Origin: Nitrospinota bacterium
GTDB taxonomy: Bacteria; Nitrospinota_A; UBA7883; JACRLM01
NCBI GenBank assembly: GCA_016235255.1
Contig: JACRLM010000031.1
Location: 43,763 to 107,762 of the forward strand
DNA: 64,000 bases
Direction: 5' to 3'
The notes beneath the pieces were generated by a model, which worked only from the letters and a program-made list of their open reading frames with translations, was not told the DNA's origin and made no database searches. The position numbers and the translations under genes were made by a program. Below are positions 335-51,548 of the stretch, piece by piece (within the stretch, counting starts at the first letter, position 1; each line of letters begins with the position of its first letter).

Positions 335-663
335 CTTTGCATTGTATCATCGGGAAGCGCATCGGCATATGTCCGCGATTCAGACTAACGCCAAGATGAA
401 AACGACCTGAAAAAGGACACTGTAACTGTCCGCAAAGAAGTCAAATCGCCATAAGTTTATATCAAAGCAAACACAAAATGGGGGGCAGGAAGTTTCCGCG
501 CGACAGTCATCTTGATGATATTATTGAATTTATAAATAGACACCGCGCGAAAAACCGTTTGGCGTATTAATTGCTTAATATCATGGGCAGACTTGTCGGT
601 TTCATCCAAACGCTATTATATAAGTTGGAATACAACGATTTGAATTTGGTGGGGGTGTTTCTT

Positions 664-1671
664 ATGTTTCGCAGGGCGGTAGCAGGATTGGCGCTTGCCG
701 GGTTGATGATGATAGCTGGCTGCAGCGGGGTGGGCGGGGAGAATGACACTTCCACTTCGGGCTCCTCTTCTACCGGATCGGGCTCCACCAAGGACCTGAG
801 CAAGATAGGGCAGACCCCCGACCTGACCTGGCACAACGATTATATGACCGGCTCCCACGCAAACTATTCGTGCGGGATCACCTGCCACCCCACGGACACG
901 GCGCTCACAAAAACTTCGGCGCGGACCTCCGGCCAAACCAAACCGGGGATGGCGCTCACCTCCACCCGGTCGGAAATCTGCTCCCAGTGCCATATGAGCA
1001 ATTACAACGCCGCGTCCAACTTCAAACATTCCCAGAATAACGTGGGCACATACTGCAACTCGTGCCACTATTCGGACAGCTTCACCTCCCATTCGCGCGT
1101 GAGCCACACGGAATTCCACTCCGTCATCACCACGAACTGCGAAAGCTGCCACTCGAACAGGTATCCTTCATCGCACTCGTCCTCTGGCAGGACCTCTGGC
1201 TGCGCCTCGTGCCACCAGTATTCCAGCGGCTCGTGGGGTCTCTCGTCCGGCGGCGCGCACACTTATACCAGTGGCTGCTCCTCTTGCCACAGCCCGACCA
1301 CGAACCATTCCGGCAGGTCCTCAAGCTGCGAAACGTGCCACACATACCCGACATGGACGGTGGCGCATACTTATACCTCCGGCTGTTCCTCTTGCCACAG
1401 CCCGACAACAGACCATTCCGGCAGGTCCAGCAGTTGCGAAACGTGCCACACATACCCGACATGGGCATGGTCGCACCCGGACGTAACTTCCGGATGCTCC
1501 TCGTGCCATAGCGGCCACTACAGCCCCTACTCCTGCGAGGGGTGCCACACGAGGGGCTTAAGCTGGGACTTCAGCCACAACTCGGTGAGTTCCTCCAACT
1601 GTATCGCCTGCCACGCCGACGGGTATGGAGATGACGGCGGCGAGGGCGGCCACGGCGGCGGCGACAACTAA
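664..1671 (+). CDS. Secreted multiheme c-type cytochrome lipoprotein (~12 heme-binding motifs), Ser/Thr/His-rich
   Basis: Lipoprotein signal MFRRAVAGLALAGLMMIAGC with lipobox IAGC. There are 11 CXXCH motifs (CSQCH, CNSCH, CESCH, CASCH, CSSCH x3, CETCH x2, CEGCH, CIACH) plus one CX3CH (CGITCH) in ~335 aa. Many extra His residues could serve as distal ligands. A GGGGGTG RBS-like stretch lies 8 nt upstream of the ATG at 664. Confidence 0.6.
   Translation: MFRRAVAGLALAGLMMIAGCSGVGGENDTSTSGSSSTGSGSTKDLSKIGQTPDLTWHNDYMTGSHANYSCGITCHPTDTALTKTSARTSGQTKPGMALTSTRSEICSQCHMSNYNAASNFKHSQNNVGTYCNSCHYSDSFTSHSRVSHTEFHSVITTNCESCHSNRYPSSHSSSGRTSGCASCHQYSSGSWGLSSGGAHTYTSGCSSCHSPTTNHSGRSSSCETCHTYPTWTVAHTYTSGCSSCHSPTTDHSGRSSSCETCHTYPTWAWSHPDVTSGCSSCHSGHYSPYSCEGCHTRGLSWDFSHNSVSSSNCIACHADGYGDDGGEGGHGGGDN
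1255..1470 (+). repeat. Internal tandem duplication (2 x 108 bp, ~90% identical) inside the multiheme cytochrome gene
   Basis: Unit 1 at 1255-1362 and unit 2 at 1363-1470 each encode AHTYTSGCSSCHSPTT(N/D)HSGRSSSCETCHTYPTW, a two-heme module. Confidence 0.8.
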
Positions 1672-3887: not shown

Positions 3888-4089
3888 TCCCCTTGCGCCA
3901 TCCGGGAAGCCGCCACCAGTGCGGTCACAATCAGGCCTGCTTTCAGCTCTTTCAGTACGTTCCCTGCGCTCAGTTCGTTCAGATGCGGCTTTTCATTCTG
4001 TCCGCCTTCCAATCTGCGGGCCATACGGGTATATTCAGCTTGTGAAAGGCGGATAGCCTCCGCCGCCTTATGAATGGAAGGATGCTGAC

Positions 4090-5349
4090 ATGGACGGAAA
4101 AATCGCGGTCCCGGCTTACATGGCGGACTTTGCATGCCTTGGCGGCGAGTGCGACATGACATGCTGCCGTGTATGGGATGTCCCCTATGATGACGCGGCG
4201 TTTGACCGCTTGCAATCGGCCATGAGCCGGGATGAGTGGGCCGCAACCCTGAAAAATTTCCGCGCTCCCGATGTGGAGATAAAGGGGGCGAAGAGCATAG
4301 TAAAACTGCGGCCGGACGGTTATTGCGTATTTTTCGATGACAAAGGGCTCTGTTCCATACAGGGGAAGTACGGGGAGATGCGCCTTGGCGACGTTTGCGC
4401 CAAATACCCGCGCCAGTTCATCGGAATCGGGAACAGGATAGAGATGGTCGGCTGCCTTTCATGTCCGGAAGCTGTCCGGGGCCTTATCGCCAAGGGGGCG
4501 GCGCATGTGGCGGTAAAAGAGCCCTCATCGCTGCCACGGCCGGACTTGCTCACGCTCAAGCATTTTGTGGACACATCGTCCGCAAGTCTTTACCAAAGCG
4601 CATTTGACGATGTGCGGGGCGTTCTGCTTCAGCTATTGCAGGACGCTTCCCATCCGTTGGACACGCGACTTTTTCTGGCCAGCTATTTCGCCTCCCGCAC
4701 ATCCACTTTCTTCAGGAAAGGGGCCGGACGTGAGCATGCCGGGAAATTGGCCGTGGAGATAAAGAATATATTGTCGTCTGCGGCGCAGATGGAGCTTAAG
4801 GCCGGTTTTGACTCGATCAGTTTTTCCAGCAAGCTTGCCGTCTCCACCATCCGCGGCGTTCTGGAAGTCCGGGCCAAAACAAAAAGCGTCTTCCCGGAAT
4901 ATGTGGAGCTTATCGGGAAAATCGCGGACCATTACGCAGGCGAATCCTCGTCGGACGCTCTCTGGAAAGCGTATGAAGGGAGCAAATCCGCCGCGCCGCA
5001 ATCAGTGCGGGACTATTTTGACAGGCTGCTCGGCAATTACTGCGCGGAGCATTTGTTGTCCACCCCATATATAGTTGAAGAGGAGCTTCTTTCGTACATC
5101 GTGCTGCTCCTTTTGCGGGTGGCGGCGCTGCGTTTCATTTTCTACAGCCATCCGGACATTTATGAATTTCAGCATGAGGTGGACAAAATTCCGGAGGAAG
5201 ATTTTTATGGACGTCTGGCCGTGAAGACAGTGGTCTTTTTCACGAAAAACCTGGAGCACAACCTGGGTTACATGGAAGAGGTCAAAAAAGCGCTTGGGGG
5301 CGGCGGGATGTTCTCGCTGGCGCACGCGGCGGTCTTTATCAGGATGTGA
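4090..5349 (+). CDS. FliB-like flagellin lysine-N-methylase (YkgJ / CxxCxxCC-type Cys-rich family)
   Basis: The N-terminal FACLGGECDMTCCRVWDV (C-x4-C-x3-CC) matches my recollection of Salmonella FliB (FSCSGSACRDHCCKGWKI). The second cluster CVFFDDKGLCSIQGKYGEMRLGDVCAKYPR matches the FliB CPYLDEHRLC...C.SYPR block, and LSCPEAVRGLI matches LSCPEAARIIL. Confidence 0.55.
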   Translation: MDGKIAVPAYMADFACLGGECDMTCCRVWDVPYDDAAFDRLQSAMSRDEWAATLKNFRAPDVEIKGAKSIVKLRPDGYCVFFDDKGLCSIQGKYGEMRLGDVCAKYPRQFIGIGNRIEMVGCLSCPEAVRGLIAKGAAHVAVKEPSSLPRPDLLTLKHFVDTSSASLYQSAFDDVRGVLLQLLQDASHPLDTRLFLASYFASRTSTFFRKGAGREHAGKLAVEIKNILSSAAQMELKAGFDSISFSSKLAVSTIRGVLEVRAKTKSVFPEYVELIGKIADHYAGESSSDALWKAYEGSKSAAPQSVRDYFDRLLGNYCAEHLLSTPYIVEEELLSYIVLLLLRVAALRFIFYSHPDIYEFQHEVDKIPEEDFYGRLAVKTVVFFTKNLEHNLGYMEEVKKALGGGGMFSLAHAAVFIRM

Positions 5350-15867: not shown

Positions 15868-16452
15868 ATGGGCAAAGTATCGTTGAGACGAGGGTCGGAC
15901 GCCGCGCGAAGGAAAGCCGCAGAGACCATAGAGGCCACCATCATCCATCAGAGGCAAAAGGAACTTACGGTTGGGCGGTGGGATTTCGTGGTGTTCGGCC
16001 CTTCGCGGGATAGGGGCAAAGCTGTGGCCAGGGTGTGCGTGGCGGAGCATATGATCATCCAGAAGGCTCCGGTGTACCTTGCGGCTGTGGGGGATCCATC
16101 GGTGATCGGTGAACCGGGCCTTGTGCCCATCGAGGAACTGACCGGCGGGGACGTGGCCGAGGAACTTTTCGGCCTTGAGGTCTATCACATTTCCCCGCTG
16201 CGCCCAATAGACGTGGTGGAAAGAAAAGAAAACGTGGATTTGGACCGGCTGCGCGGCATTGTGATAGAGGAATATTCCGGCCTGAACATAGCCATAATCG
16301 AAACACCCGACGAGGCGGCGTGGAGCGTTTCCGCGCTTCAATACCTCAACGATTGCGACGATATTTTTCCCGACCAGCTTATGAGCGCCATCCGCTCCAC
16401 CATGCGGGACACTTCCATAACCTTCCGCCAGCCACCGGGGCTTATAAACTAG
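15868..16452 (+). CDS. Hypothetical protein (acidic, 194 aa), divergent from ugd
   Basis: Good GC3 codon bias in this frame and no recognisable family. The overlapping minus-strand ORF 15847..16341 is His-rich antisense junk. Confidence 0.35.
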   Translation: MGKVSLRRGSDAARRKAAETIEATIIHQRQKELTVGRWDFVVFGPSRDRGKAVARVCVAEHMIIQKAPVYLAAVGDPSVIGEPGLVPIEELTGGDVAEELFGLEVYHISPLRPIDVVERKENVDLDRLRGIVIEEYSGLNIAIIETPDEAAWSVSALQYLNDCDDIFPDQLMSAIRSTMRDTSITFRQPPGLIN

Positions 16453-16539
16453 CTTTTCCAGCCATTTTTACCGTGCCGCTCCGGCATGATTATAACGCCG
16501 CATTATTACAATTATTGTTCAAAGCGGCGTATATTAGTC

Positions 16540-19325
16540 ATGGATAGGCATCGGCGGAACGCGCTAATGAAAATGAAAAGGCCTCCGTTAACCCCGGCGC
16601 AGATAGCATTGGTTTACCTGGTCGTAGCTATCGCGTGGGAAATATTTTCAGACACTTTTGTGTTCCATCTGACAGGCAGATTCGGCCCGCCAACGCTCGC
16701 GCATATTTCGGAAGAATTTCTTGTCGTATCGGTCACCGCTTTTATCATTTTCGCGCTCATTCGCAAATCGTCCATTACCCTGCTTGGCAAACAGGTGGAA
16801 ATTGAGTCCGCAAACCGCTTTCTGAGGATCATAAGCGACTCCAACAAGATATTGATCAACTCGGGATCCGAAGTGGAATTTCTTCGCCGGATATGCGAGG
16901 TGATCGTGGAAACTGGCGGTTACCCGATGGCCTGGGTGGGATTGGCGGGGGATGATAAAGACCGCAAAGTAACGCCATTGGCATGGGCCGGCGCCGTGGA
17001 CGGATATTTCGAGGCCGTTCAAATACGCTGGGACGATTCCGATGGGGGCGCCGGCCCCACCGGGCGGGCCATCAAGACCGGCCTGCCCCAGATTAGTGGC
17101 GATATGCGGACGGACGAATCATGCCGCAATTGCGCCGAAGAGGAGGCCAAGCGCGGATTCCTTTCGTGCATTTCGTTCCCGATGATCGGCAACGGCGGTA
17201 CATTTGGCGTCCTGACCGTTTTTTCGGACACCCCCAACGCTTTCACGGAGGTGGAGTCGCAACTGCTCGGCGAACTGGCGGACGACATGGCCTATGGAGT
17301 CGCCGCGTTGCGCGCAAGACAAACCGCGATTCTAGCTGAAGAAACATCGCGCCGGCTGGCCAGATTCCCGGAAGAAAACCCTCATCCCGTGCTGCGCGCC
17401 GGAGAAGACGGCTCGCTGATATACGCCAATCCGGCCGCGGAAAGTATCTGTCAAAACGGAGGGCTGCTGCCGGACGATCTGGCGGCTGCGGTGGTGAGCG
17501 CCTACTTAAACGAGACCAGTGACGAGATTGTCGTGGAACGGGGCGGCAAACACTTTTCGTTGCACATAGTCCCGATTCCAAAGGAAGGGTATGTCAACAT
17601 TTATGGACGGGACATAACCGAACGTATAGAACGCGAGAGGAGCCTTGCGTACCGGCTTGGAGCGGAAAAGGCGCTGGCGGAGTTTTCGGCCATGTTCGCC
17701 TCACCGGATCCGCCGGACATGGACGTGGCGCTGGGGGTGCTTGGCCGCGCCGTGGACACGAGCCGATGCTACATCTTCGCAATGGAAGAGGGCGGCAGGA
17801 AGATGAGCAACGTCAACGAATGGGTGAAGGAAAGCGTGACGCCCCAGATCGCGAATTTACAGAATCTCGACGTTTCCATCGTCCCCTGGTGGAACGCCCG
17901 GATCGGCGCGCAGGAATACATCGCCATTCCAGACGTTTCCGCCATGCCACTTGAAGCCGCGGCGGAAAAGGCCATATTCGAACAACAGGACATAAAATCC
18001 TTGCTTTGCGTCGCCATCAGGCATGGGGACGGGCGGCTGGCCGGCTTTATCGGATTTGACGACACGGATAAGGCGCGCAAATGGCATGATGAGGACATCC
18101 GGCTTATGAAAGTTGCGGCGGATATCCTTTCCGCCCACTTTAAACGCAGGGAAATGGAAAAAATATTGCGGCTGCTCTCCGTCGGTGTGGAGCAGAGCAA
18201 CGCCTCCATTATCATGACGGACACGCAAGGGAGGATCGTCTATGGCAATAAAAAGACGTTTGAAGCCACCGGATACAGCAAGGCGGAGCTGATGGGGCAA
18301 AATCCCCGGCTGTTCAAGTCTGGGCACACTGCGCCGGAGGAATATAAAAAGCTTTGGGACACCATCACGTCGGGCCGGGTATGGCGGGGTGAATTCCATA
18401 ACAAAATGAAAAACGGCGAGCTTTACTGGGAGAGCGCCGTGATATCGCCGGTGAGGGGGACGGACGCATATCCAACTACATCGCCGTCAAGGAGGACATA
18501 ACCCAAAAGAAACACCTGGAGGCCGTCGCGCTCCAGTCTGAAAAAATGGCCTCCATAGGCCAACTGGCGGCGGGCGTGGCCCACGAGATAAACAATCCCA
18601 TCGGATACGTATATTCCAATTTCGGCTCGCTGGAACGATATGTAAAGGCGCTTGTATTCCTTCTGGACGAGCACGGAGCGCTGGAAAACCATTTGCCGGA
18701 GGAAGCTCGTTCGCGGCTTGACGATATCAGGAAAACCATCAAGTTCGACATTATAAAGACCGACATTTTCGACCTGATGAGCGAATCCCGCGATGGTCTA
18801 GAGCGGGTGAAGCACATCGTTATGGCCTTGCGGGACTTCTCCCACTCCGCCGAAAACGAATGGCGGGAGTACGACCTTGCCGCCGGGCTTTCCAGCACGC
18901 TTAACATCGTGCACAACGAAGTGAAATACAAGGCCGAAGTGGTGAAGGAGTTCGGCGGCATTCCGAAGGTGGAATGCATGCCCATGCAGATAAACCAGGT
19001 TTTCATGAACATCATCATAAACGCGGCGCAGGCGATCACGGAGCGGGGCGTCATCACGATAAAAACATATGCGGAGGATGAAGGCGTGGCCGTGGAGATA
19101 ATAGACACCGGCCAGGGCATCCCGCCCGGCGACTTGAAAAAAATCTTCGACCCGTTTTTTACGACCAAGCCGGTTGGGCAGGGAACCGGGCTGGGCCTTT
19201 CCCTTTCCTACAGCGTTATCCAGAAACACCGGGGCAGACTGGAAGTGGAAAGCGAACCGGGAGAAGGAACCCGGTTCAAGATATGGCTCCCCTGTAAGCG
19301 CAAGGTGGAGAGCGGCGGCCAATAA
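16540..19325 (+). pseudogene. Multi-domain sensor histidine kinase (2TM-GAF-PAS-GAF-PAS-HisKA-HATPase_c) interrupted by a 1-nt frameshift in a G5 run at 18455-18459
   Basis: ORF 16486..18501 ends mid-PAS domain at ...WESAVISPVRGTDAYPTTSPSRRT*. Reading one base earlier continues DGRISNYIAVKEDITQKKHLEAVALQSEKMASIGQLAAGVAHEINNP (HisKA H-box) and GTGLGLSLSYSVIQKHRGRL (G2 box), ending at 19325. Confidence 0.65.
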
Positions 19326-25242: not shown

Positions 25243-26139
25243 TTAACGAATATCAACGATAATCAGGCAGTACAGCAGGGGGAGATGCACCAGGGAGAAA
25301 AAGAAGAGGCTCATCGCCACCTTCCTGCCCGAGAAAACAAACCACAGGGACAGAGAGAAGAACAGGACGCCGGCCGCCATTGCTCCGGCAAGGTAAAACA
25401 GCCCCGCCATCCCGACTACATAAGGCAGAATTGAGACCGCCGCAAGCACAAAGGCCCATATGGCTATCTGCCGCTTGGTCTCGTCCACCCCTCTTTTCAC
25501 CGGCAGGTTCATCACTCCGGCGCTTTTGTACTCATCCATGTACTTTAGGGCGAGCGACCAGAAATGCGGATGCTGCCAGGCGAATATTATCAGGAAAAGC
25601 GTGAGCGCCCAGATGTCCGGAACCGGCTTGATCGCCGCGTAACCTATCACCGGAGGAAGAGCCCCGCCCACGCCGCCCACAAAGGTGGCCAGCGGCGTGC
25701 TGCGCTTGGTCATCAAAGTGTACGGTATGACGTAAATGAACAAGGCCGCCGTGGAATATAGCGCGGCGGCCTTGTTTACATGTGCCGTAAGGATCACAAC
25801 GGAAATGGCGGAAAGCGCCAGCCCGCAATAAAGGGCCTTCAACGGGCTGATCAATCCGGAGGGGAGCGGCCGGCCTGAAGTTCGGCGCATGACAAAATCT
25901 ATATCTCTGTCGATATAGTTGTTCAATGCGGCGGCGCCCGCCGTGGAAAAAGCGGTCCCCAGAAGTGTCCAGAAGACAAGCGCGGGGGCGGGAAGCCCCC
26001 TTTGCGCTATGTACATCCCGGCCAGGGCGGAAACTATCACAAGCGCGATTATCCCCGGCTTTACAAGCGCAAGGTGGTCCAACAGGACCCCTTTAAGGCT
26101 GATCTGCCTCGCTTCAGCGGTGGATACGCGCCCGGACAT
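25243..26139 (-). CDS. ctaB: Protoheme IX farnesyltransferase (heme O synthase)
   Basis: UbiA-family motif NNYIDRDIDFVMRRTSGRPLPSG. The product is polytopic. Confidence 0.9.
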   Translation of the reverse strand: MSGRVSTAEARQISLKGVLLDHLALVKPGIIALVIVSALAGMYIAQRGLPAPALVFWTLLGTAFSTAGAAALNNYIDRDIDFVMRRTSGRPLPSGLISPLKALYCGLALSAISVVILTAHVNKAAALYSTAALFIYVIPYTLMTKRSTPLATFVGGVGGALPPVIGYAAIKPVPDIWALTLFLIIFAWQHPHFWSLALKYMDEYKSAGVMNLPVKRGVDETKRQIAIWAFVLAAVSILPYVVGMAGLFYLAGAMAAGVLFFSLSLWFVFSGRKVAMSLFFFSLVHLPLLYCLIIVDIR

Positions 26140-27033
26140 TTACGCCCTCGCCTCCTCTTGAACCAGCATGTTAAATCCAAGAAGCCCCGGGGCCGACCTG
26201 TAGGCCACCCAGCCGAGCAGCAGGAATCCAAAGGCGCCGTGGCCGACAATCAGGGGGAGGAACATGCCGGAATGCACGATTCCTATGCCCACCGCCCCCT
26301 GCGCCACCACGAGCGAAAACGTTATGACGGAATTGGCCACGTCGCTCTTGTCCTTTATCGCCTTTATCATATAACCGCCGGTGAAAAAGAACACCACATA
26401 CGCCATCAGCCGGTGGACAAAGTGAAGAGCGATACCCGGCTCCGCGAATTCCGGGATCACCTGGCCGTTGCAAAGCGGGAACTCCGCCGAGCAGGCCATG
26501 GCCGCCTGGCTGTACCTGACGAAAATCCCAAGGATCACCTGGAGAAGGATTATGGCGAACATCACAGTATAGACACTGTTTTCCTTCGCCGCCGGAGCCG
26601 TGTCCAGCCGCCGGTAGGCAAGGATCATGAGAATGAAAATGGCCGTGGCCACAATAATGTGGAACGAGATAACCATTATATGCAGAACGCCCTCAAGAAG
26701 CGGCGCCTCCAGCATGACGATCACCCCGCCGAATACCGCGCCAACCCCCAATAGCCCCAACGCCGACATCGTCAGCGCCCTGACAGGCCCCTTTGCCGTC
26801 AACCATACGGAAACCGTCGCGCCTAATATGAAAAGCCCTGTCGCGCCTCCAAGAAGCCTGTGACTCCATTCAATCCATGTCTGTATCTGAAGGGGAGGGA
26901 CTACCGTCCCGTAACACAACGGCCAGTCCGGACAACCCAGGCCGGATCCGGTCGTGGTGACCACGTTCCCCACCACCATAAGAATGTAAGTGAAAGCGAT
27001 TGAGAGCCCGATAAGTATCTTGTTCATGCGCAT
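26140..27033 (-). CDS. ctaA: Heme A synthase (COX15/CtaA)
   Basis: GSGLGCPDWPLCYG and conserved His-containing TM helices are present. Start chosen at MRMNK (ATG 27033) with AGGAA upstream. The stop abuts the ctaB start. Confidence 0.85.
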   Translation of the reverse strand: MRMNKILIGLSIAFTYILMVVGNVVTTTGSGLGCPDWPLCYGTVVPPLQIQTWIEWSHRLLGGATGLFILGATVSVWLTAKGPVRALTMSALGLLGVGAVFGGVIVMLEAPLLEGVLHIMVISFHIIVATAIFILMILAYRRLDTAPAAKENSVYTVMFAIILLQVILGIFVRYSQAAMACSAEFPLCNGQVIPEFAEPGIALHFVHRLMAYVVFFFTGGYMIKAIKDKSDVANSVITFSLVVAQGAVGIGIVHSGMFLPLIVGHGAFGFLLLGWVAYRSAPGLLGFNMLVQEEARA

Positions 27034-27158
27034 TGTTCCTCTACTGCTTTTAATGCTAACAAAGATGTATTTGAAAATATACGCAAACTTTATAAAGAAC
27101 GGCCCGGCTCCGGTATTATACCAGAGCCGGGACCGCATCATTCTACCAGGAACACGCC

Positions 27159-28742
27159 TTATATCGTGTGAGCAGTATGCTTACCGTAGTTATAAGGCGA
27201 CCAATCCGCCGACACGGTCGGAGGAGTGGGGAAGTTGCCGGCCCCCGGAGGATACACGGTGTGTGTCCACTCCAGCGACTTGGAACCCCACGGATTGTGA
27301 GGGGCCTTCTCGCCGGCGATGGCGCCGTGGATCCAGGTGATGATCGTGATGGCCATGCCAAGGGCGATGATAAGGGCGCCGACAGTGGCGATCTTCATCG
27401 CGCCTTCAAACTGCGGGAACATGGCATAGTCGAAATACCTCCTGGGCATCCCTTCCACGCCGATCCACATCAGCGGAGCGAAGGTCACGTTCACGCCGAT
27501 GAAATTGAGCAGGAAGCCCAGCTTGCCGAGGGTCTCGTTGTACATCCGGCCGGTCATAAGCGGGAACCAGAAATAGACCCCCGCAAACACCGCGAATGTG
27601 GCCATGATTCCCATTATGTAATGGAAGTGGGCCATAACGAAGTATGTCTCGGAAAGATGCAGCGTCATCGAGGTCATGGACAGCGGGATACCGGTCAGCC
27701 CGCCCGCCAGGATCAGGAACAGCTCGGAGGCCGCGTACAGCATCGGGGTGTTGTACTGGATGGAACCCTTGTACAGCGTCCCCACCATGGTCAAGACCAG
27801 CAGACCCACCGGGATGGAGATGATGATCGTCGTCATCATCATGCCGATCCTGAGCCAGTCCACAAGACCTGAAACGTACAGGTGGTGGGCCCACACGTCC
27901 GAACCGAGCACCACAGTCCCCCACACGCCGCCATAAACACAGGTCTTATAGTTGAATATGGGGTTGCGGGACATGGTGGAGAGTATCTCAAGGATGGTCC
28001 CGATGGCCGGCAGCAGAATAACGTACACCGCCGGGTGCGAATAGAACCAGAACAGGTTCTGGTATAAAAGCACGTCGCCACCCTGGGCCGGCGCGAAGAA
28101 CGCCGTGCCGAAATACTTGTCAAAGAGAACCAAAGTCACCGCCGCGGCGAGCACGGGGATGAAGATCAATTGCAGGACGAACGCGCCCAGAACGGTCCAC
28201 ACGAAGATGTTCAGTTGGTTCCAGCCCAGGCCTGGCGCCCTCATGTAGATCACGGTGCAAAGGAAGTTGACCGCGCCGAGGATGGACGAGAAGCCCATCA
28301 GGTGCACGGTGAACACGTAGAAAGAAGTGTTCCCGGCCGTCTGCACGGAGTACGGGGGATAGCCCGTCCACATGACATCAGGCGGATCCGGGATGACGAA
28401 AGTCAGAAGAGCAAGAACGATGGCGAACCAGAAGAGCCACACCGAGAACGAGTTGATCCTCGGGAAGGCCACGTCGTGCGCGCCTATCATTATCGGGATG
28501 AGGTAGTTCGCCAAAAACCCTGTCAGCCCCGGTATCAGGAACGCCAAGATCATCGCGGCGCCGTGGAAATACAACCATACGTTGTAGTTCGTGGCGTCGC
28601 TTGTGATTGTCGGCCCCAGGCCCGACTGTTCAAGCCGTATCAGAAGGGCCATTATCCCGGCGACAGCGAACGCCGCGATGGACCCTACCAGATACAGGAT
28701 GCCGATCCTTTTATGATCGGTTGAAAAAATCCAATCCTTCAT
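27159..28742 (-). CDS. ctaD: Cytochrome c oxidase subunit I
   Basis: MKDWIFSTDHKRIGILYLV, the heme-copper oxidase His ligands, and WAHHLYVSG.. / HFHYIMG motifs. AGGA RBS is present. Confidence 0.95.
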   Translation of the reverse strand: MKDWIFSTDHKRIGILYLVGSIAAFAVAGIMALLIRLEQSGLGPTITSDATNYNVWLYFHGAAMILAFLIPGLTGFLANYLIPIMIGAHDVAFPRINSFSVWLFWFAIVLALLTFVIPDPPDVMWTGYPPYSVQTAGNTSFYVFTVHLMGFSSILGAVNFLCTVIYMRAPGLGWNQLNIFVWTVLGAFVLQLIFIPVLAAAVTLVLFDKYFGTAFFAPAQGGDVLLYQNLFWFYSHPAVYVILLPAIGTILEILSTMSRNPIFNYKTCVYGGVWGTVVLGSDVWAHHLYVSGLVDWLRIGMMMTTIIISIPVGLLVLTMVGTLYKGSIQYNTPMLYAASELFLILAGGLTGIPLSMTSMTLHLSETYFVMAHFHYIMGIMATFAVFAGVYFWFPLMTGRMYNETLGKLGFLLNFIGVNVTFAPLMWIGVEGMPRRYFDYAMFPQFEGAMKIATVGALIIALGMAITIITWIHGAIAGEKAPHNPWGSKSLEWTHTVYPPGAGNFPTPPTVSADWSPYNYGKHTAHTI

Positions 28743-28817
28743 GCCTATATCCTTTCATTTCAAGCCTATTTTCCGTAAAGCCGACGAACCCCAAGCCCGC
28801 CGGCCTCTTTAAAACCG

Positions 28818-29639
28818 TTACTTTCCGGCGGCCGGAGCAGCCGGAGCGGCGGCGCCTTCAGCTGCCGGAGCGGCCGGGGCAGCGCCCTCAGCCGGAGCGG
28901 CCGGAGCCGGAGTTGCTGCGCCACTCTTGGCAAGGATCATTTCCTCAAACTTGGCTGCGGGAATGACCTTCACCTTGCCGAACATGTTCGAATGACCAAC
29001 GCCGCAATACTCGGTGCAGGTGAGCACGTTCTCCCCGATCTGCTTGGGCAGGAACCACTCGTAAGTGATGCGCCCAGGCATAACGTCTTCCTTCACGCGG
29101 TAATCGGGAAGGAAGAAGGAGTGGACCACGTCTTCGCTGTGCATCCGGAGGACAACAGGCTGCCCCTGAGGAACGAAAAGCTGCGGCCTGCCGTTGGCGT
29201 CCGCCTCGGCGACGACTCCGTTGCCGTAGTCGAACTCCCAGTTGTACATCATTGCGGTCAGTTTGACTTCCCTGGCGTTCACAGGGACGGTCCTCTGGTT
29301 GATCCACAGCTTGAAGCCATTGGCGGCCAGATACATATCGTCCGCCAGGAACACAAACACCGGGACAAGCGTCCAGGCCAGCGAGCCGCCCAGCGACAAT
29401 CCCGGAAGGCTGCCCTCTTCGTTCTCGCTCTTCCTCACGAAAGACACGAGCATGTAAATCGATATCAGCCCGAAAACAACGCCAATCGCGCCCAGGTCTA
29501 GCACCAGATGGCCCCAAAGATTGTTCCAACCCTCGGTGTGGTCATGGATAGCCCCCTCGGCGGCCGGTGCGGCTGATGACGCCATAGCCGTCAATGGAGC
29601 GGCAGCCATCATAGCCGCCGTAAACACCCATTTCTTCAT
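28818..29639 (-). CDS. ctaC: Cytochrome c oxidase subunit II (CuA) with a C-terminal Ala/Pro-rich tail
   Basis: CTEYCGVGHSNM is the CuA motif. Two N-terminal TM helices. The C-terminus is PAPAAPAEGAAPAAPAAEGAAAPAAPAAGK. The start overlaps the SCO1 stop (ATGA). Confidence 0.9.
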   Translation of the reverse strand: MKKWVFTAAMMAAAPLTAMASSAAPAAEGAIHDHTEGWNNLWGHLVLDLGAIGVVFGLISIYMLVSFVRKSENEEGSLPGLSLGGSLAWTLVPVFVFLADDMYLAANGFKLWINQRTVPVNAREVKLTAMMYNWEFDYGNGVVAEADANGRPQLFVPQGQPVVLRMHSEDVVHSFFLPDYRVKEDVMPGRITYEWFLPKQIGENVLTCTEYCGVGHSNMFGKVKVIPAAKFEEMILAKSGAATPAPAAPAEGAAPAAPAAEGAAAPAAPAAGK

Positions 29640-30487
29640 ATTTTAGTCTCCTTGCCTCTCTTCACTTTTTTCCTCTGAATATTGGCGGCGAATAAAAACG
29701 CCGCCACTCCCGTCAACAATGAACCGAAAGAAACGAAAAGCGGATAATTGAGCCGGTACTTGCCATCCTTGAAGTTATAGCTGTAGCACATGCTCATCGC
29801 TATATTGCCCGCGTCCGCCGGCTTGAGCTGCTCGAACTTGCTTTCCAATATCGCAAGCTCCATGTCCCGCGCGTCGGAAACCTGGCTTTGAAGGATTCGA
29901 AGGACCCTGCCCTCGGGGGAAATGAAATAATACGCGCTTGAGTGGAAGAACATCCTGTCGGCGGGAGACCAGAAGAACTTGAAACCAACATTCGAAGTGA
30001 GCTTTTTGATGTCCTCATGATCCTTGAAGGTGGCCACATACCAGCTGCCCTTCATGTCCGATGGAATCCCAAGGCTCTTCGAAAATATTTCCGCGCTCGA
30101 CGCATTGTCGTTCTTGTCGAAAGACAGGGTCAACACGGAAAAGTCCTTGCCGATCTTCACGTTCTTTAACGCCTGCGCCTTGTCGAGCACCTTTTTCAGG
30201 TCGCCGTTGAAGGCCGGGCAGAATCCGTCGCAAGAATAATAGGAAAGGACCATGATCACAGGCCTGCCACGCAGGTCTTTCATGGAAAATTCCTTCCCGT
30301 CGCTCCCTACGAAGGTCAGTCCGCCGTCAAGCTTGGTCCCGAGGACGTTGATCTCGTCAACCAGCAAGGTCGCCGGATCAAGCTCGGACTCGGGCGGGCG
30401 GAATCCCTGGGCGCTCCCTTGCGCCGCGAAAAACAGGATAAGCGCGGCCGCCATCACAACGGCCCGGTGCTTCCCAAACGTGTACAC
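29636..30487 (-). CDS. SCO1/SenC copper chaperone (thioredoxin-like)
   Basis: YYSCDGFCP is the CxxxC copper-binding motif. A signal peptide or anchor is at the N-terminus. The gene sits between oxidase subunits III and II. GTG start at 30487; an alternative ATG is 11 codons in. Confidence 0.75.
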   Translation of the reverse strand: MYTFGKHRAVVMAAALILFFAAQGSAQGFRPPESELDPATLLVDEINVLGTKLDGGLTFVGSDGKEFSMKDLRGRPVIMVLSYYSCDGFCPAFNGDLKKVLDKAQALKNVKIGKDFSVLTLSFDKNDNASSAEIFSKSLGIPSDMKGSWYVATFKDHEDIKKLTSNVGFKFFWSPADRMFFHSSAYYFISPEGRVLRILQSQVSDARDMELAILESKFEQLKPADAGNIAMSMCYSYNFKDGKYRLNYPLFVSFGSLLTGVAAFLFAANIQRKKVKRGKETKI

Positions 30488-30502
30488 TTGATTATCCCCG
30501 AA

Positions 30503-31276
30503 TTACCAGATGTAAACCTGGCTCACAACGAAGAACCAAACGATATCAACGAAGTGCCAGTAAATCCCGGCCCCCTTCACGAAAGTGTGGCTCACAGCCC
30601 CGCCAAGCGCCGGTATCAGTATCGCGATGAACGCGCACAGGCCGACGAGAACGTGGGAAGCGTGGAAGCCGGTTATCGAGTAGAACGCCGTGCTCTTCGC
30701 GTTGGTGCCCCACACGAAACCTTCGCTGAGAAGATGGTTGTATTCATAGGCCGTGCAGCCAAGGAATACGGCGCCCAATGCTATGCTCACCATCAGCCAG
30801 GTGTTGAACCCGCCCTTGTCTCCCTCTTCGATCCTCATTTCACCGAGGTGGTATGTGACCGAGGAAGTGACCAGTATCACGGTCATAATCAGAGGAAGGG
30901 TCACGCCTATCTCCGGAGAACCCGCAGGCGGCCACACGTCGGCGGACATCCTCATTGTCCAGTAAGCGGCGAAAAGAGACAGGAATATCATGACTTCCGA
31001 AACGATGAAGATCGGAAGGCCTGTCAGGGAGTAGCCGTGCTCATGATCCCTGTTTGCGATGCCTTCCTTCGTCCAACCAGCGACCCCCCAGATCAAAAGC
31101 GGCGTCCCAATGCCAAGGGCGGCTATGCCCATGGTGGCGTTGTGATACTGGAAAAAGAGGCCGAATGCGATTGGAATCGCGAAAAAGATGCCCGCCACCA
31201 GAATCAGCGGATAAACGCTTGATTCCCAGTGATGGACGGTATGGCCTTGGCCACCATGGCCCTCGTTATGCGCCAT
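30503..31276 (-). CDS. ctaE: Cytochrome c oxidase subunit III
   Basis: HHWESSVYPL, FYSITGFHASHVLVG and WHFVDIVWFFVVSQVYIW are present. Start chosen at MAHNEG (ATG 31276), preceded by GGGGGAGGG 5 nt upstream. The longer listed ORF (to 31339) lacks an RBS. Confidence 0.9.
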   Translation of the reverse strand: MAHNEGHGGQGHTVHHWESSVYPLILVAGIFFAIPIAFGLFFQYHNATMGIAALGIGTPLLIWGVAGWTKEGIANRDHEHGYSLTGLPIFIVSEVMIFLSLFAAYWTMRMSADVWPPAGSPEIGVTLPLIMTVILVTSSVTYHLGEMRIEEGDKGGFNTWLMVSIALGAVFLGCTAYEYNHLLSEGFVWGTNAKSTAFYSITGFHASHVLVGLCAFIAILIPALGGAVSHTFVKGAGIYWHFVDIVWFFVVSQVYIW

Positions 31277-35722: not shown

Positions 35723-35751
35723 AGAGGCTCCGAGCCGGGGCCGGGGCCCTT

Positions 35752-35783
35752 ATCCCGGATAGCCTATGAGGCTTCCGGGATGA
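35752..35783. repeat. REP-like hairpin unit (inverted copy of the unit at 8835-8868)
   Basis: ATCCCGGATAGCC-tatgag-GGCTTCCGGGATGAC. The 3' arm is the exact reverse complement of 8835-8849. Confidence 0.45.
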
Positions 35784-35840
35784 CAGCAAACGCGCTGGTG
35801 GCGCTCCCAAAGGAAAAACCCATTGTCGAAAATGATTTTC

Positions 35841-39027: not shown

Positions 39028-39238
39028 TATCCCCCCGGCAATTTTTTCATCTCCAGCCAACTTCCATGCCATCTTTCCCGCAAGCAAAAAAAACCCTCAA
39101 GGAAAAATTTCGCCGGGACGATAAGAAATCAACTTCGGGAAAACCCGATGAAGATCGGCGGTAGAAGCGCCACCGACAAAAGAGGTTAACTGGTTTCAGC
39201 AAGGATGCTGAGGCCCACATTATCAAGGAGGACCGGCA

Positions 39239-40120
39239 ATGCCATTAAGAGTTTACAACAACCTGTATTCCCTCACCGCCCAGCGCAATTTGGGCACCAA
39301 CAACGCCAGCCTTGGCACATCGTTGGAAAGACTTTCATCCGGTATGAGGATCAACCGCGGATCGGACGACGCGGCGGGTCTGGCCATATCCGAAGGCTTG
39401 AGGGCGGACATCCGCTCCCTCCAGCAGGCCACAAGGAACGCTTACGACGGCGTGAGCATGATCAACACGGCGGAAGGCGCCCTTTCCGAACAGTCTTCCA
39501 TCCTCGTTCGTATGCGCGAACTGGCCGCGCAGGCCGCCACGGGCACAGTCGGTTCCACCGAACGGGCCACCATCAACCGCGAATTTTCCGCGCTGCGGGA
39601 CGAAATAGACAGGATCTCGACGGTCACCGAATTCAACGGCCAGAAACTGCTCAACGGCGCACTGAACGGCGACATAACCACCATCAAGTTGAACAACGGC
39701 GCATCCGCCAACTCGGTGGTGATCCAGATTGGCATGCAGGCCGGCTGGGCTGACCGCATCAGCCTGAACGCCTCCGTGGACCTGACCGCCATAGACTCCA
39801 CCGGGCTTAACATAACCAACATTTCGGTGACGCACGTCTCTTCGGCCCTCGACGCTCTTGGCAGGATAGATTCCGCTCTTGCCAGGGTGACCGAAGCCCG
39901 CGGCCGGCTTGGCGCGGTGCAAAACCGGCTCGTGCACACCATCAACAACCTGGCGGTGTCCGCTGAGAACCTGCAGGCAGCCGAATCACAGATACGCGAC
40001 GCGGACTACTCGCACGAAATCTCGCAGTTCACCAGGAATCAGATACTGGTGCAGGCTTCGACGGCGATCTTGGCCCAGGCCAACCTTGTGCCTCAGTCGG
40101 TGCTGCAGCTGCTCGGTTAA
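39239..40120 (+). CDS. fliC: Flagellin (short, 293 aa, D0/D1 only)
   Basis: The N-terminus LGTSLERLSSGMRINRGSDDAAGLAISEGL and the C-terminus LGAVQNRLVHTINNLAVSAENLQAAESQIRDADYSHEISQFTRNQILVQASTAILAQANLVPQSVLQLL are the flagellin N and C domains. Confidence 0.9.
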   Translation: MPLRVYNNLYSLTAQRNLGTNNASLGTSLERLSSGMRINRGSDDAAGLAISEGLRADIRSLQQATRNAYDGVSMINTAEGALSEQSSILVRMRELAAQAATGTVGSTERATINREFSALRDEIDRISTVTEFNGQKLLNGALNGDITTIKLNNGASANSVVIQIGMQAGWADRISLNASVDLTAIDSTGLNITNISVTHVSSALDALGRIDSALARVTEARGRLGAVQNRLVHTINNLAVSAENLQAAESQIRDADYSHEISQFTRNQILVQASTAILAQANLVPQSVLQLLG

Positions 40121-40314: not shown

Positions 40315-40342
40315 TAAAGGGGATAGCGCATTGAACCGATAA
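40315..40342 (+). promoter_or_regulatory. Candidate sigma28 (FliA) promoter upstream of fliD
   Basis: TAAA (40315-40318), a 16-nt spacer, then ACCGATAA (40335-40342), against the consensus TAAA-N15-GCCGATAA. Confidence 0.3.
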
Positions 40343-40385: not shown

Positions 40386-41975
40386 ATGTCTATTTCCATT
40401 GACGGGCTGGTCTCAGGGACTAACTATACGTCCTTGATCCAGCAACTGATTGACATCGAGAGGCAGCCCATAAAGCTAATCGAGAACAAGCAGACCATCC
40501 TCAAGGAAGAAAAGACCGCCTGGTCGGCCATCAGCCCCAAGCTCGTTTCGCTTGAGTCCGCCGCCAATGACTTAAAATCGGCCCAGAAGTTCTCCAGCCT
40601 GTCCGCCTCGTTCCAGAACAACAACTCCGCCGGCGGGTCCGTCCTGTCGGTCACGGCCACCACATCCGCGGCGGCAGGCACATATAACGTAAAGGTCACT
40701 CAACTAGCCGCCAACCAGATTTCCGCCAGCAGCCAGACTTTTGCGAGCATGACCACAGCCGCCGGGCTTTCGGGGACCTTGAGCATCGGCGCCACCAACG
40801 TGAGCATCACTTCCGGGCAGAGCCTGTCGGATATTTTGAGCAACATAAACAATTCGGCCGCCGCAGCCACGGCGACAATAGTCAACTCCGGAACGACCGC
40901 AAGCCCACTATACAAGCTTGTCCTCTCCGGCGATGACACCGGGGCCGCCGGGGCATTCACCGCATCAACGGTGATGGACGCGGGAGCGCTTAGTTTCACC
41001 ACCACGCAGTCCGCCCAGAACGCCCTGTTCACCGTCAACGGCATATCCATAAGCAAGGACACGAACACGGCCACTGACGTCATTTCCGGGGTGACGCTAA
41101 ACCTGCAGACCTCCGGGTCCGGCGCCGTGACGGTCGCCACCGACTATGCCGGGATCGTCACGAAGGTAGAAAAATTCGTCGCCGCGTACAATGACGCGCT
41201 CAACCTGATCTCCAACGAGCTCAAGTACGACCCGTCCACAAAGTCGAAAGGGGCGCTTTTCGGCAATAACGCCCTGATGACCATACAAAACCAGCTGCGC
41301 TCCATAGTCAGCGGCGCGGTGCCCGGACTGGACCCCACTGACACAAGCACGTTATCGACGCTGTCGCAGGTGGGGATCATGATGGACCGGAATTTCCAGC
41401 TCACGGTGGACACAGCCGAGCTTTCCTCGGCGCTGCAGACCAATTTTGCCCAGGTCCAGAACCTTTTCGCCCCCAGCGGAAGCGGTACCTACACTTTCGT
41501 GGCCGCCTCTGGCAAAACACAGGGCGGGACATACAGCACCAGGGTGTCCGGCGGGGTGTTCCAGATGAAGCTTTCCGGCACAAGCGACTGGATATCCCTC
41601 ACGCAGGACGGGAACTTCGCCCTTGGGCAGGCCGGAACATCGCTTGAAGGGCTGCTAATCAGGACAGGATCGCTGGTGGAAAGCGCCACGGGCCAGATGA
41701 AAATAACCGTGGGCGTGGCCGAGCGCGTGGCCACCAACGCTTCGACTTACACGGAATATTCGGCTGAAGGGCTGATCTACACCCAGACCAAGAGCATAGA
41801 TGACCGGGACAGGGAATATCAGGACAACATTGACGCCTTGAACGTGAGAATCACGAAAAAGGAAGTGGACCTGAAAGCTAAATTCGCCAATCTGGAGGTC
41901 TTGCTGGCAAAGATGAGCTCCCAGCAGCAATACCTTAACAACCAGTTGACGAACCTGAACAAGAACTGGAGATAA
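40386..41975 (+). CDS. fliD: Flagellar filament cap protein FliD (hook-associated protein 2)
   Basis: The N-terminus ISIDGLVSGTNYTSLIQQLIDIERQPIKLIENKQ and the C-terminal coiled coil (...DNIDALNVRITKKEVDLKAKFANLEVLLAKM) are characteristic of FliD. Confidence 0.85.
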   Translation: MSISIDGLVSGTNYTSLIQQLIDIERQPIKLIENKQTILKEEKTAWSAISPKLVSLESAANDLKSAQKFSSLSASFQNNNSAGGSVLSVTATTSAAAGTYNVKVTQLAANQISASSQTFASMTTAAGLSGTLSIGATNVSITSGQSLSDILSNINNSAAAATATIVNSGTTASPLYKLVLSGDDTGAAGAFTASTVMDAGALSFTTTQSAQNALFTVNGISISKDTNTATDVISGVTLNLQTSGSGAVTVATDYAGIVTKVEKFVAAYNDALNLISNELKYDPSTKSKGALFGNNALMTIQNQLRSIVSGAVPGLDPTDTSTLSTLSQVGIMMDRNFQLTVDTAELSSALQTNFAQVQNLFAPSGSGTYTFVAASGKTQGGTYSTRVSGGVFQMKLSGTSDWISLTQDGNFALGQAGTSLEGLLIRTGSLVESATGQMKITVGVAERVATNASTYTEYSAEGLIYTQTKSIDDRDREYQDNIDALNVRITKKEVDLKAKFANLEVLLAKMSSQQQYLNNQLTNLNKNWR

Positions 41976-42016: not shown

Positions 42017-42454
42017 ATGCAAGGTTACGGCAGGCCATCGGTTTACCAGGTGACGCAGGTTTCGACCGCGAACAAGTCAAAGCTGGTCCTCATGATGTAT
42101 GACGGGGCGATACGCTTCATCAACGACGCGAAACGCTGCCTTGAAACACGGGACATCGCGGGCAGGGGGCTTGCCATAAGCAAGGCTCAACGCATAGTGC
42201 ACGAATTGCGCGCCGCTCTGAACATGGAAAAAGGGGGAGAGGTGGCGGTCAGTCTGGAGAAGGTCTATTCGATCGTCAACAGGCGGCTTTTGGACGCGAA
42301 CATGAAGGGAAGCGTGGCGGACCTGAACATCTGCATGGACATGTTCACCACGTTAAAGGACGCGTGGAGCCAGGCGATGCACTCGGCGGGGCAGGAGCAA
42401 ATGCCGATCCACGCCGCGCCAATGGCGGCGGCCGGGGTTAAAGTGGCCGTCTGA
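42017..42454 (+). CDS. fliS: Flagellin-specific chaperone FliS
   Basis: YQVTQVSTANKSKLVLMMYDGAIRFINDAK...VAVSLEKVYSIVNRRLLDANMKGS is the FliS four-helix-bundle signature. Confidence 0.85.
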   Translation: MQGYGRPSVYQVTQVSTANKSKLVLMMYDGAIRFINDAKRCLETRDIAGRGLAISKAQRIVHELRAALNMEKGGEVAVSLEKVYSIVNRRLLDANMKGSVADLNICMDMFTTLKDAWSQAMHSAGQEQMPIHAAPMAAAGVKVAV

Positions 42455-48782: not shown

Positions 48783-48800
48783 TTCATGTTTCCATTTTCT

Positions 48801-50624: not shown

Positions 50625-51548
50625 TTACCTTTTTCCCCGTGAAAAAGCCTTTTTCACGGACCAGTCTATATTCTTCCTATCCACGCAATACCGCGCCACC
50701 CATTCGGAAAAGCTGGCGATATGGCAGTGCCGGGTGACTATCCCGGATTCCGAACAATTGTAAAACTCGGCCGGGGGCTGGTCCCGCTTGAGGTTGACGA
50801 AAGCCCACTCCATCCACTGTTTGGACACCGAAAAACTTTTGCGTGTGCGCACCGGGCGGCCGAAAATGTCCCGCTCCTCCACCACGGCGTCCACGCTGGA
50901 GGCCAGGGCGTCCTGGGCGGAGATGTCTTCATAAATCGTGTCCCCGGCGTAGGCCGCCCCGCCGTGAGGGAACGAAAGGTCCTGCCCGATAAAGGCGATA
51001 CGCGGGCAGCCGAGCCTGAAGGCCAAGTCCAGCCCCACGGTGAGGACCGATCCGCCGGGTATTAAATAGCCAAGCCTCTGGTTCATCCGTGCGATTTCCG
51101 TGAGTACAGGGATGTCCGGGGCGAACTTGTTGTAGAAGACCGTCTCCCCTTTCCACGCCTCTATCGTGGCGGGATGGGCTATGGAGGGGACCACAAGAAT
51201 TTTTTTTGCGGTGGAAGCGCCGGCGAAGAACCTGGCCACGTCGGGCTGGGGATCGAGGGTCACGGTGAACGTGGGCGCTATCCCCTCGTCCGCCAATGAC
51301 TTGAAAATCGTGTCCACGGCGATTATCACCGCCTTTCCCTGCGCGGCGTGGAGCCACATCCTGTTCTTGTCCAGCGACGGGCCCGCCCCCACGATCACCG
51401 CCGGAACGTCCGTGAACCTTCCGAACAGCGGCGCAACGCCGGGTGATGATGCGATCTTAGGCTTTAGCGCTTCATGGTTGGCAAGCCATAGGGCGCCGAA
51501 ATTGGCGATGGTGGCGGTCTTTACCTCGTATATCCTTTGCAGGTCCAT
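50625..51548 (-). CDS. Maf-like / DUF115 (6-hydroxymethylpterin diphosphokinase MptE-like) protein, putative flagellin glycan transferase
   Basis: PAVIVGAGPSLDKN...VIIAVDTIFKSL...TVTLDP...GGSVLTVGLDLAFRLGCPRIAFIGQDLSF follows the MptE-like/Maf core (G-x-G-P-S-L). Confidence 0.45.
   Translation of the reverse strand: MDLQRIYEVKTATIANFGALWLANHEALKPKIASSPGVAPLFGRFTDVPAVIVGAGPSLDKNRMWLHAAQGKAVIIAVDTIFKSLADEGIAPTFTVTLDPQPDVARFFAGASTAKKILVVPSIAHPATIEAWKGETVFYNKFAPDIPVLTEIARMNQRLGYLIPGGSVLTVGLDLAFRLGCPRIAFIGQDLSFPHGGAAYAGDTIYEDISAQDALASSVDAVVEERDIFGRPVRTRKSFSVSKQWMEWAFVNLKRDQPPAEFYNCSESGIVTRHCHIASFSEWVARYCVDRKNIDWSVKKAFSRGKR

Follow-up and report, generated by a model that had tools for sequence, protein, structure and literature searches.

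The gene at positions 4090..5349 (forward strand) of the 64,000-nt stretch that we analyzed, hereafter the window (contig JACRLM010000031.1 of assembly GCA_016235255.1, positions 43,763-107,762, forward strand), encodes a divergent homologue of the flagellin lysine methylase FliB. Its membership of the FliB family, the conservation of its cluster-binding and auxiliary cysteines, its confidently predicted fold and the flagellar linkage of several of its near relatives are established here. The reading that we favor, and to which we give about an even chance, is that of an intact, divergent FliB-family enzyme whose most likely client is the flagellar filament protein, acting either site-specifically or on another flagellin. 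To our knowledge, no protein-lysine methyltransferase other than FliB depends on an Fe-S cluster; we know of no solved structure of FliB, the question of its mechanism is not settled, and we are aware of studies in Salmonella alone.

The gene encodes a full-length FliB homologue

The open reading frame starts with an ATG codon that is preceded at a distance of 7 nt by a ribosome-binding site, GGAAGGA (4076..4082, forward strand; read from the sequence), and encodes a protein of 419 aa that is homologous to the [4Fe-4S]/SAM protein-lysine methyltransferases of the FliB family and that falls into the clade referred to below as clade II. The initial annotation had listed two cysteine blocks and the short motifs RVW, KYPR and LSCPEA in this ORF, and we found all of them as described. 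Thus, the translation contains C16-x4-C21-x3-C25-C26 (CX4CX3CC; codons at 4135..4167, forward strand; aligned with the Salmonella protein), which is followed by R27-V28-W29; a second block, Y78-C79-VFFDDKGL-C88-SIQGKYGEMRLGDV-C103-AKYPR108; and a third motif, L123-S-C125-PEA. The second set of cysteines that is conserved in the family alignments (C79, C88, C103 and C125), together with P107-R108 and C125-P126-E127, is encoded at 4324..4464 (forward strand).

The proposal that this protein belongs to the FliB family was borne out by the profile search that had been suggested as a check. The NCBIfam FliB model NF038110 matched with 152.2 bits (cutoff 85, E 2.8e-44), and the match was full-length (residues 8-397 against profile positions 1-372 of 373); in addition, the precomputed Pfam annotation of the exact protein includes the newer domain PF27117 (FliB_C). 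The second profile that had been suggested, PF03692 (CxxCxxCC/YkgJ), failed: it did not match the protein even at E<=1 in the Pfam profile search, in which the sole match, TP6A_N at E 0.25, is noise. A clade II relative (L005) scored 22.5 bits with PF03692, which is below the cutoff of 23. The hallmarks of the radical SAM superfamily, the PF04055 domain and a CX3CX2C motif, were not found in the protein either. The identical protein is present at NCBI as 'MAG: flagellin lysine-N-methylase [Nitrospinae bacterium]'. Hence, the assignment to the FliB family is right but had been made before, and the gene adds little as an annotation.

The database protein P0077 (401 aa, representing a cluster of 4,212 sequences) served as the Salmonella anchor in all analyses. 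All eight cysteines (C16, C21, C25, C26, C79, C88, C103 and C125) are invariant in an alignment (A3) with P0077 and the FliB proteins of Yersinia and Enterobacter, as are W29, G95, L99, P107-R108 and P126-E127, and in an alignment of 75 family members (A2) the eight cysteines, P107-R108 and P126-E127 are invariant or at least 90% conserved. The motifs are therefore not due to chance, because they are conserved across 75 homologues as well as in the enterobacterial FliBs. They are also the hallmarks by which FliB proteins are defined in the literature. The AlphaFold2 model (pLDDT 89.7, pTM 0.90) shows an N-terminal module rich in cysteine and, behind it, a helical C-terminal domain; the latter, all-helical and covering approximately residues 165-419 (the FliB_C region), is encoded at 4582..5346 (forward strand).

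In Salmonella FliB, the CX4CX3CC motif (C17/C22/C26/C27) binds a [4Fe-4S] cluster, and mutants of the four-Cys motif lose both the cluster and activity, while the cysteines equivalent to C79, C88, C103 and C125 have no assigned role even in that protein (PMC8598068). It is almost certain that the window protein adopts the FliB fold and possesses the Fe-S site that goes with it, and [4Fe-4S]/SAM-dependent protein-lysine methylation is our best guess for its mechanism. The match to NF038110 defines a fold family and not a substrate, since members that are not linked to flagellin also pass its cutoff.

The FliB family contains at least two deep clades

We searched 1.84 billion representative sequences exhaustively with HMMER and retrieved 4,460 FliB family members at E<=1e-3, among which the best match to the window protein other than itself shares 33-35% identity with it. 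Overall identity to Salmonella FliB is 16%, and similarity to that protein detectable by BLAST is confined to the N-terminal part (residues 5-133, about 136 residues; 25% identity, E 4e-13). A neighbor-joining tree of 73 sequences, calculated from BLOSUM62 score distances over 419 columns, has two clades, and the split between them was recovered in 100 out of 100 bootstraps. Clade I comprises the Enterobacteriaceae, including Salmonella, together with Bacillota, Acidobacteriota and one betaproteobacterium. Clade II comprises sulfur-oxidising Gammaproteobacteria, Myxococcota (cultured myxobacteria are not known to be flagellated) and the window protein, which is thus placed in another clade than Salmonella FliB and is not its ortholog in this sense. 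Group HMMs that were built without the window protein gave this protein scores of 286 bits for the gammaproteobacterial model, 276 for that of the Myxococcota, 186 for clade I without the enterics, and 64 for the enterics.

The flagellin-linked FliB proteins of Bacillota score 309-338 bits on NF038110 and the clade II proteins without flagellar context 152-184 bits, all above the cutoff, and this model does not separate clade I from clade II. NF038110 spans at least two deep clades, one of which has non-flagellar branches; outside clade I, the automatic label 'flagellin lysine-N-methylase' is therefore a fold assignment and not a functional one, and this equivalog label probably covers a clade of broader function. 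Branching within clade II is star-like; the window protein lies outside the gammaproteobacterial sub-branch and has no supported sister. It is because of this lack of a reliable sister that no transfer of genomic context from a nearest neighbor to the window protein is justified.

Genomic context of fliB-like genes

Loci with as much as 10 kb of flanking sequence on either side were collected, 80 from genomes and 80 from metagenomes, and were then searched with flagellin, FliD and FliS as queries. The metagenome loci had been found with a 10-sequence alignment and mostly re-sampled the gammaproteobacterial core, and the counts given here are restricted to those loci whose two flanks together reach 8 kb or more. 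One or more of the flagellar genes fliC, fliD and fliS were present within 10 kb at 27 of the 54 non-enterobacterial clade I loci, none of which had an adjacent Peptidase_M99 gene. The gammaproteobacterial core of clade II showed flagellar genes within 10 kb at none of its 34 loci and an adjacent Peptidase_M99 gene at 28 of them. There, the fliB-like gene is the third cistron of an operon, behind genes for a VanY-like D,D-carboxypeptidase and a Peptidase_M99 of the Csd4/Pgp1 type, and the gap is often 0-4 nt. Among the 17 other clade II loci, one had flagellar genes and none an adjacent Peptidase_M99 gene.

The contigs of the near relatives of the window protein (29-33% identity) were looked up directly. 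Seven of these have a readable context, and in four cases this is a flagellar or flagellin-glycosylation locus: P0353 is located within a flagellar cluster that is complete, with a sigma-54 regulator on one side and fliE-fliF-fliG on the other; P0201 in an island encoding flagellin, FliD, FliS, FliT and a glycosyltransferase; P0209 (locus L168) next to an island with an 832-aa Maf protein and PseB/PseC/NeuB/NeuC/NeuA; and L113 3' of FliD-FliS. As for the remaining three, P0197/P0345 retains the sigma-54 regulator as its only such neighbor, P0199 lies 3' of a PMT_2 glycosyltransferase gene, and P0211 has no flagellar neighbor. Apart from the fliB-like gene itself, the clade II loci have no neighbors in common with the window.

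Surroundings of the fliB-like gene in the window

On one side the fliB-like gene is flanked by genes for a spermidine-synthase-like membrane protein and a 179-aa membrane protein and on the other side by argG-recG; a cytochrome c gene is also among its neighbors. The same 419-aa protein with the same neighbors recurs in several independent assemblies. The GC3 of the gene (0.66) is slightly lower than that of its neighbors (0.72-0.78). The distance from its end to the start of the flagellin gene is 33.9 kb; unlike a gene of a flagellin methylation island of the fliDC/fliAZ type, it thus lies outside the flagellin locus and is not adjacent to it. This distance carries little weight either way, because the flagellin gene, fliC, itself forms with fliD and fliS an isolated three-gene unit among housekeeping genes, between pyrF/tatC and aminotransferase/uvrB genes.

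A scan with the sigma-28-type pattern T[AC]AA-N16-xCCGATAA identified, as consensus matches only, the putative promoters TCAA-N16-GACGATAA (39097..39124, forward strand), 115 nt 5' of the flagellin gene, and TAAA-N16-ACCGATAA (40315..40342, forward strand), 44 nt 5' of fliD. The same scan gave no sigma-28-type promoter 5' of the fliB-like gene, and a consensus scan gave no sigma-70 promoter there. The best local resemblance to a sigma-28 promoter, GCGGATAG, was rejected since it has no -35 partner. Terminator-like matches are weak. An Rfam search of the window returned a single tRNA and nothing else.

The flagellin in the window as a candidate substrate

The short flagellin of 293 aa that the initial annotation had placed at 39239..40120 is indeed encoded there (fliC, forward strand), with Flagellin_N at residues 7-141 (E 3e-44) and Flagellin_C at residues 208-292 (E 4e-28). 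It is followed by fliD (40386..41975, forward strand), which encodes the filament cap protein of 529 aa with FliD_N and FliD_C domains, and by fliS (42017..42454, forward strand), which encodes the flagellin chaperone of 145 aa (PF02561, E 8.6e-37). The Flagellin_N and Flagellin_C parts are joined by a 66-residue linker, and the flagellin thus consists of D0/D1 only, without D2/D3. No second flagellin gene is present in the window; further flagellins may be encoded outside of it.

As a candidate substrate this flagellin is poor in lysine. The count of its lysines, which had been suggested for the D1 region, gave two in the whole protein, as compared to 22 arginines: K136 (FNGQKLLNG, codon at 39644..39646, forward strand), the conserved lysine of D1, and K150 (TTIKLNNG, codon at 39686..39688, forward strand), the single lysine of the short central segment. 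This corresponds to a lysine fraction of 0.7% versus a mean of 5.2%, the lowest among the 46 proteins of the window, and argues against extensive methylation. In Salmonella, a flagellin molecule can receive as many as 16-18 methyl groups from FliB, mainly on D2/D3 (PMC7181671; PMC8598068). The window flagellin does not have the many surface-exposed lysines that D2/D3 provide in Salmonella, and heavy methylation of the Salmonella type is impossible on it; one or two sites would be the maximum.

Flagellins encoded next to fliB elsewhere usually have 8-17 lysines. Those adjoining fliB in Bacillota are also D0/D1-only proteins, of 255-281 aa with 9-17 lysines, and because short flagellins are thus normal beside Bacillota fliB, missing D2/D3 domains alone do not argue against flagellin being the substrate. 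Next to the clade II fliB-like genes of L086 and L169, the flagellins have 8 and 17 lysines, respectively, 10 of the latter being in the variable region, and both contain the lysine equivalent to K136. Nor is the pairing of a fliB gene with a low-lysine flagellin unique, as the clade I loci L055 and L076 combine fliB with flagellins of 2-4 lysines. A target lysine shared by low-lysine flagellins was considered and rejected, the lysines of the L055 and L076 flagellins being at other positions.

The DUF115 protein and flagellin glycosylation

A Maf/DUF115-like protein had been proposed at 50625..51548, with glycosylation of the flagellin as a further possibility. The domain is there: the gene (reverse strand) encodes a DUF115/MptE-like protein of 307 aa that matches PF01973 with an E value of 2.4e-36. 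The Maf part of the proposal did not hold, since the protein scores 76 bits against the PseD model NF050051, whose cutoff is 670, and covers profile positions 230-460 of 640; it thus consists of the core domain alone, without the N- and C-terminal domains that flank DUF115 in full-length PseD/Maf proteins. Its gene is part of a tight string of genes encoding GGDEF, DUF115, PMT_2/TPR and hisG. No genes for NeuB, PseB/PseC or a CMP-sugar synthetase were found among those ORFs of the window that encode 150 aa or more. The sugar genes that are present, encoding HldE, a GT9 heptosyltransferase, Wzy_C and a UDP-glucose dehydrogenase, look like LPS and O-antigen functions; nonulosonic-acid genes could be located outside the window. 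It is therefore doubtful that the DUF115 protein is part of a flagellin-modification system, and glycosylation of the flagellin finds no support in the window, because only the DUF115 core is present, NeuB/PseB/PseC genes are absent, and the sugar genes are of the LPS/O-antigen type.

Possible substrates of the enzyme

What we infer for the window protein as regards cluster binding, use of SAM, methylation of lysines and its substrate is as follows. The enzyme would be cytoplasmic and would hold an oxygen-sensitive [4Fe-4S] cluster on its N-terminal CX4CX3CC motif; with S-adenosylmethionine as the methyl donor, it would methylate protein lysines at their epsilon-amino group, and the flagellar filament protein would be modified in the cytoplasm ahead of its export. 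On the flagellin of the window, the modification would affect K136 and/or K150 at most. Since only these two residues are available, the action would have to be site-specific, or directed at another flagellin, rather than a surface-wide coating.

A flagellar role of the protein is plausible, and we estimate the chances that flagellin is its client to be roughly even. The initial interpretation stands in part: a FliB homologue is present in a flagellated genome, but the step from there to a methylated flagellin is weak; the flagellin has two lysines, the enzyme belongs to another clade than Salmonella FliB, and its gene has no sigma-28 promoter. The view that flagellin is the client is favored by the flagellated nature of the host, which has fliC, fliD and fliS, and by four of the seven near relatives with a readable context, which lie in flagellar or flagellin-glycosylation loci. 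It is weakened not only by the near-absence of lysines, the missing sigma-28 promoter and the different clade, but also by the non-flagellar branches in clade II, the flagellar linkage of only one of the 17 other clade II loci, the spermidine-synthase-like, argG and recG neighbors, and the restriction of the BLAST similarity with Salmonella FliB to the N-terminal part.

Several of these observations are what would be expected if the protein were an Fe-S/SAM protein methyltransferase with the FliB fold and a non-flagellin substrate, clade II having diversified and the name having been inherited from an over-broad equivalog model. Members from VanY-Peptidase_M99 operons and from Myxococcota score 152-184 bits on NF038110, above its cutoff; flagellar linkage is absent at all 34 gammaproteobacterial core loci and nearly so at the other clade II loci; the flagellin of the window is nearly free of lysine; the gene has no sigma-28 promoter; and the adjoining genes have housekeeping and membrane functions. 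On the other hand, several of the closest relatives reside in flagellar or flagellin-glycosylation loci, the window protein lies outside the VanY-M99 sub-branch, and its own neighbors do not point to any other substrate, so that we regard a non-flagellin substrate as possible but rather unlikely. In a related and equally tentative reading, clade II would represent a broader set of [4Fe-4S]/SAM protein methyltransferases, of which the one studied here would coexist with a lysine-purged flagellin (2 K, 22 R) and act on this flagellin at a single site, either K150 or K136, or else on a client other than flagellin. If true, this would parallel the gammaproteobacterial branch that is tied to genes for peptidoglycan carboxypeptidases (VanY and the Csd4/Pgp1-type M99).

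The lysine-poor flagellin could also mean that the protein is a true flagellin methylase that acts on one or more lysine-richer flagellin paralogues encoded outside the 64-kb window. Many FliB-linked loci hold two to four flagellin genes (for example L066, L081, L055 and L076), and the window is a minor part of the MAG, the source contig alone having a size of 146.5 kb. We nevertheless think this unlikely, as there is only one flagellin in the window, and the fliC-fliD-fliS unit, with its own sigma-28-type promoters, resembles a canonical filament unit. Still far less probable is that the gene was left over, decaying or without function, from a flagellin-modification island that had been acquired horizontally. 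The lower GC3, the location of the gene apart from other modification genes, and its singleton status, all relatives being at 35% identity or less, would fit such an origin, but the ORF is full-length and has a good ribosome-binding site, the eight cysteines and the other invariant residues are kept, the fold is predicted with confidence, and the identical protein is found across independent assemblies.

The preferred reading, in which the filament protein is the client, would have a practical side. With two lysines and no domains beyond D0/D1, the flagellin that accompanies this FliB homologue makes a very clean test substrate, and if the enzyme is active on this flagellin its site specificity could be read from two residues. 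The modification would then be a one- or two-site change, not the hydrophobic coating described for Salmonella.

Comparison with known systems

The CxxCxxCC/YkgJ family (PF03692), whose members are putative zinc or iron chelators, has an N-terminal Cys-rich motif of similar style, and the resemblance of FliB to this type of motif has been pointed out before (PMC8598068). The spacing is different, however, being CX4CX3CC in the window protein and CX2CX2CC in PF03692.

The characterized FliB of Salmonella enterica (NF038110, PF27117; PMC8598068, PMC7181671) is of comparable size (401 aa versus 419 aa) and has the CX4CX3CC motif, the eight cysteines, W29, G95, L99, P-R and C-P-E at aligned positions. 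Both proteins combine a Cys-rich N-terminal module with a helical C-terminal domain, match the family HMM over their full length and come from flagellated genomes. They differ in that they share only 16% identity and belong to different deep clades (100/100 bootstraps), and in that Salmonella flagellin is methylated at up to 16-18 sites, whereas the window flagellin lacks D2/D3 and has two lysines. In Enterobacteriaceae, fliB is part of a 'flagellin methylation island' at fliDC/fliAZ (PMC4875605), whereas the window gene is located 34 kb away from the flagellin gene, between the spermidine-synthase-like membrane protein gene and argG.

The FliB proteins of Bacillota (Paenibacillus, Cohnella, Anoxybacillus and Clostridium; clade I) are covered by the same model and are likewise accompanied by short D0/D1-only flagellins of 255-281 aa. 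Unlike the window protein, which scores 152 bits, they score 309-338 bits on NF038110, and their flagellins have 9-17 lysines. Half of the clade I loci (27/54) also have fliC, fliD or fliS within 10 kb, which is not the case for the window gene. The FliB-like proteins from the VanY-Peptidase_M99 operons of Gammaproteobacteria (Thioalkalispiraceae, Ectothiorhodospiraceae and Thiohalophilus MAGs) form a sub-branch of their own, with approximately 550-630 bits on the gammaproteobacterial HMM versus 286 for the window protein, and their genes are separated by 0-4 nt from a gene for a Csd4/Pgp1-type carboxypeptidase, a neighbor that the window gene does not have. On the other hand, they share with the window protein the deep clade, about 27% identity, the same cysteine pattern and a location away from flagellin genes. 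Compared with all of these systems, the window protein is a divergent addition to the known FliB family.

Gene neighbourhoods of FliB-like proteins

In the gamma core, the sub-branch of the FliB family formed by sulfur-oxidising Gammaproteobacteria and lying apart from the window protein, a string of three genes ends with the FliB-like one; the first encodes a VanY-like D,D-carboxypeptidase bearing a TAT signal, and the second a Peptidase_M99 of the Csd4/Pgp1 cell-shape carboxypeptidase type (for example, L005:7713-11242). The genes of this string are separated by only 0-4 nt, and the arrangement is conserved in 28 of the 34 gamma-core loci (L005, L006-L024, L029, L031, L033, L093-L112), the hosts being Thioalkalispiraceae, Ectothiorhodospiraceae and Thiohalophilus MAGs. 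No flagellar genes were found within 10 kb of the gamma-core FliB-like genes, and the NCBIfam label for the encoded proteins would still be "flagellin lysine-N-methylase" (184 bits). Together, there are hints that the Fe-S methylase of the VanY-M99 string has a peptidoglycan- or cell-shape-related role.

Clade I, the branch that includes the Salmonella enzyme, contains fliB genes accompanied by tandem short flagellins at two loci of Pseudomonadota MAGs (L055:7405-9349 and L076:9344-11285). These flagellins are 265-268 aa long and have only 2-4 lysines, the conserved lysine of "saKDDAAGLAI" being among those kept. Thus, a lysine-poor flagellin beside a FliB gene is not specific to the window.

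Some Myxococcota FliB-like proteins are extended at the N-terminus. In P0204 and P0347 (769 aa, from a Polyangia MAG), the FliB module is fused behind about 340 additional residues, and the alignment to the window protein begins at residue 338. Long ORFs of this kind are also present at loci L026 and L035. At three loci (L084:5257-7965, L085:8567-11275 and L169:8354-11353), the gene immediately upstream of the FliB-like gene encodes a sigma-54-dependent response regulator with the domains Response_reg, Sigma54_activat and HTH_8. The pair at L169 sits within a flagellar cluster; those at L084 and L085 are present without any other flagellar gene at the locus. It may be the regulator-FliB-like pair itself that constitutes the conserved unit.

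In the near relative P0199, the FliB-like gene is directly preceded by a PMT_2 gene. The minus strand of the window contains a tightly packed string (48129-52951) comprising genes for a GGDEF diguanylate cyclase (51557-52951), a DUF115-only protein (50625-51548) and a PMT_2 GT-C glycosyltransferase with TPR repeats (48801-50612), in this order, followed by hisG. Based on the gene adjoining P0199, a FliB-like/PMT_2/DUF115 association may therefore be a recurring one.

Promoter matches and respiration in the window

The top-ranking sigma-28-type promoter match of the window (36250-36277; TCAA-N16-GCCGATAA, with a perfect -10 element) falls in a stretch of about 950 nt without a convincing gene (35723-36667), in which no Rfam match was found. 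A 91-aa ORF without a Pfam match is located downstream (36317-36592), and an unannotated small gene or RNA of the flagellar regulon may be transcribed from the promoter match. A short intergenic tandem repeat following the phosphofructokinase gene (about 35750-35940) reads, in two reading frames, as GDHGEALR x3 and RPRGSIKR x3. Another sigma-28-type match (16338-16364; TCAA-N15-GACGATAT) lies 122 nt upstream of the gene for a GAF-GAF-PAS protein (16486-18501), which may belong to the flagellar or chemosensory regulon.

Finally, COX3, SCO1, COX2, COX1, CtaA and CtaB/UbiA are encoded in the window as a cluster for a cytochrome c oxidase of the aa3 type (25243-31339, minus strand), and a multihaem cytochrome c is encoded at 571-1671 (plus strand); the host therefore respires oxygen. 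This contrasts with the clusters of FliB-type enzymes, which are oxygen-sensitive in vitro (PMC8598068).
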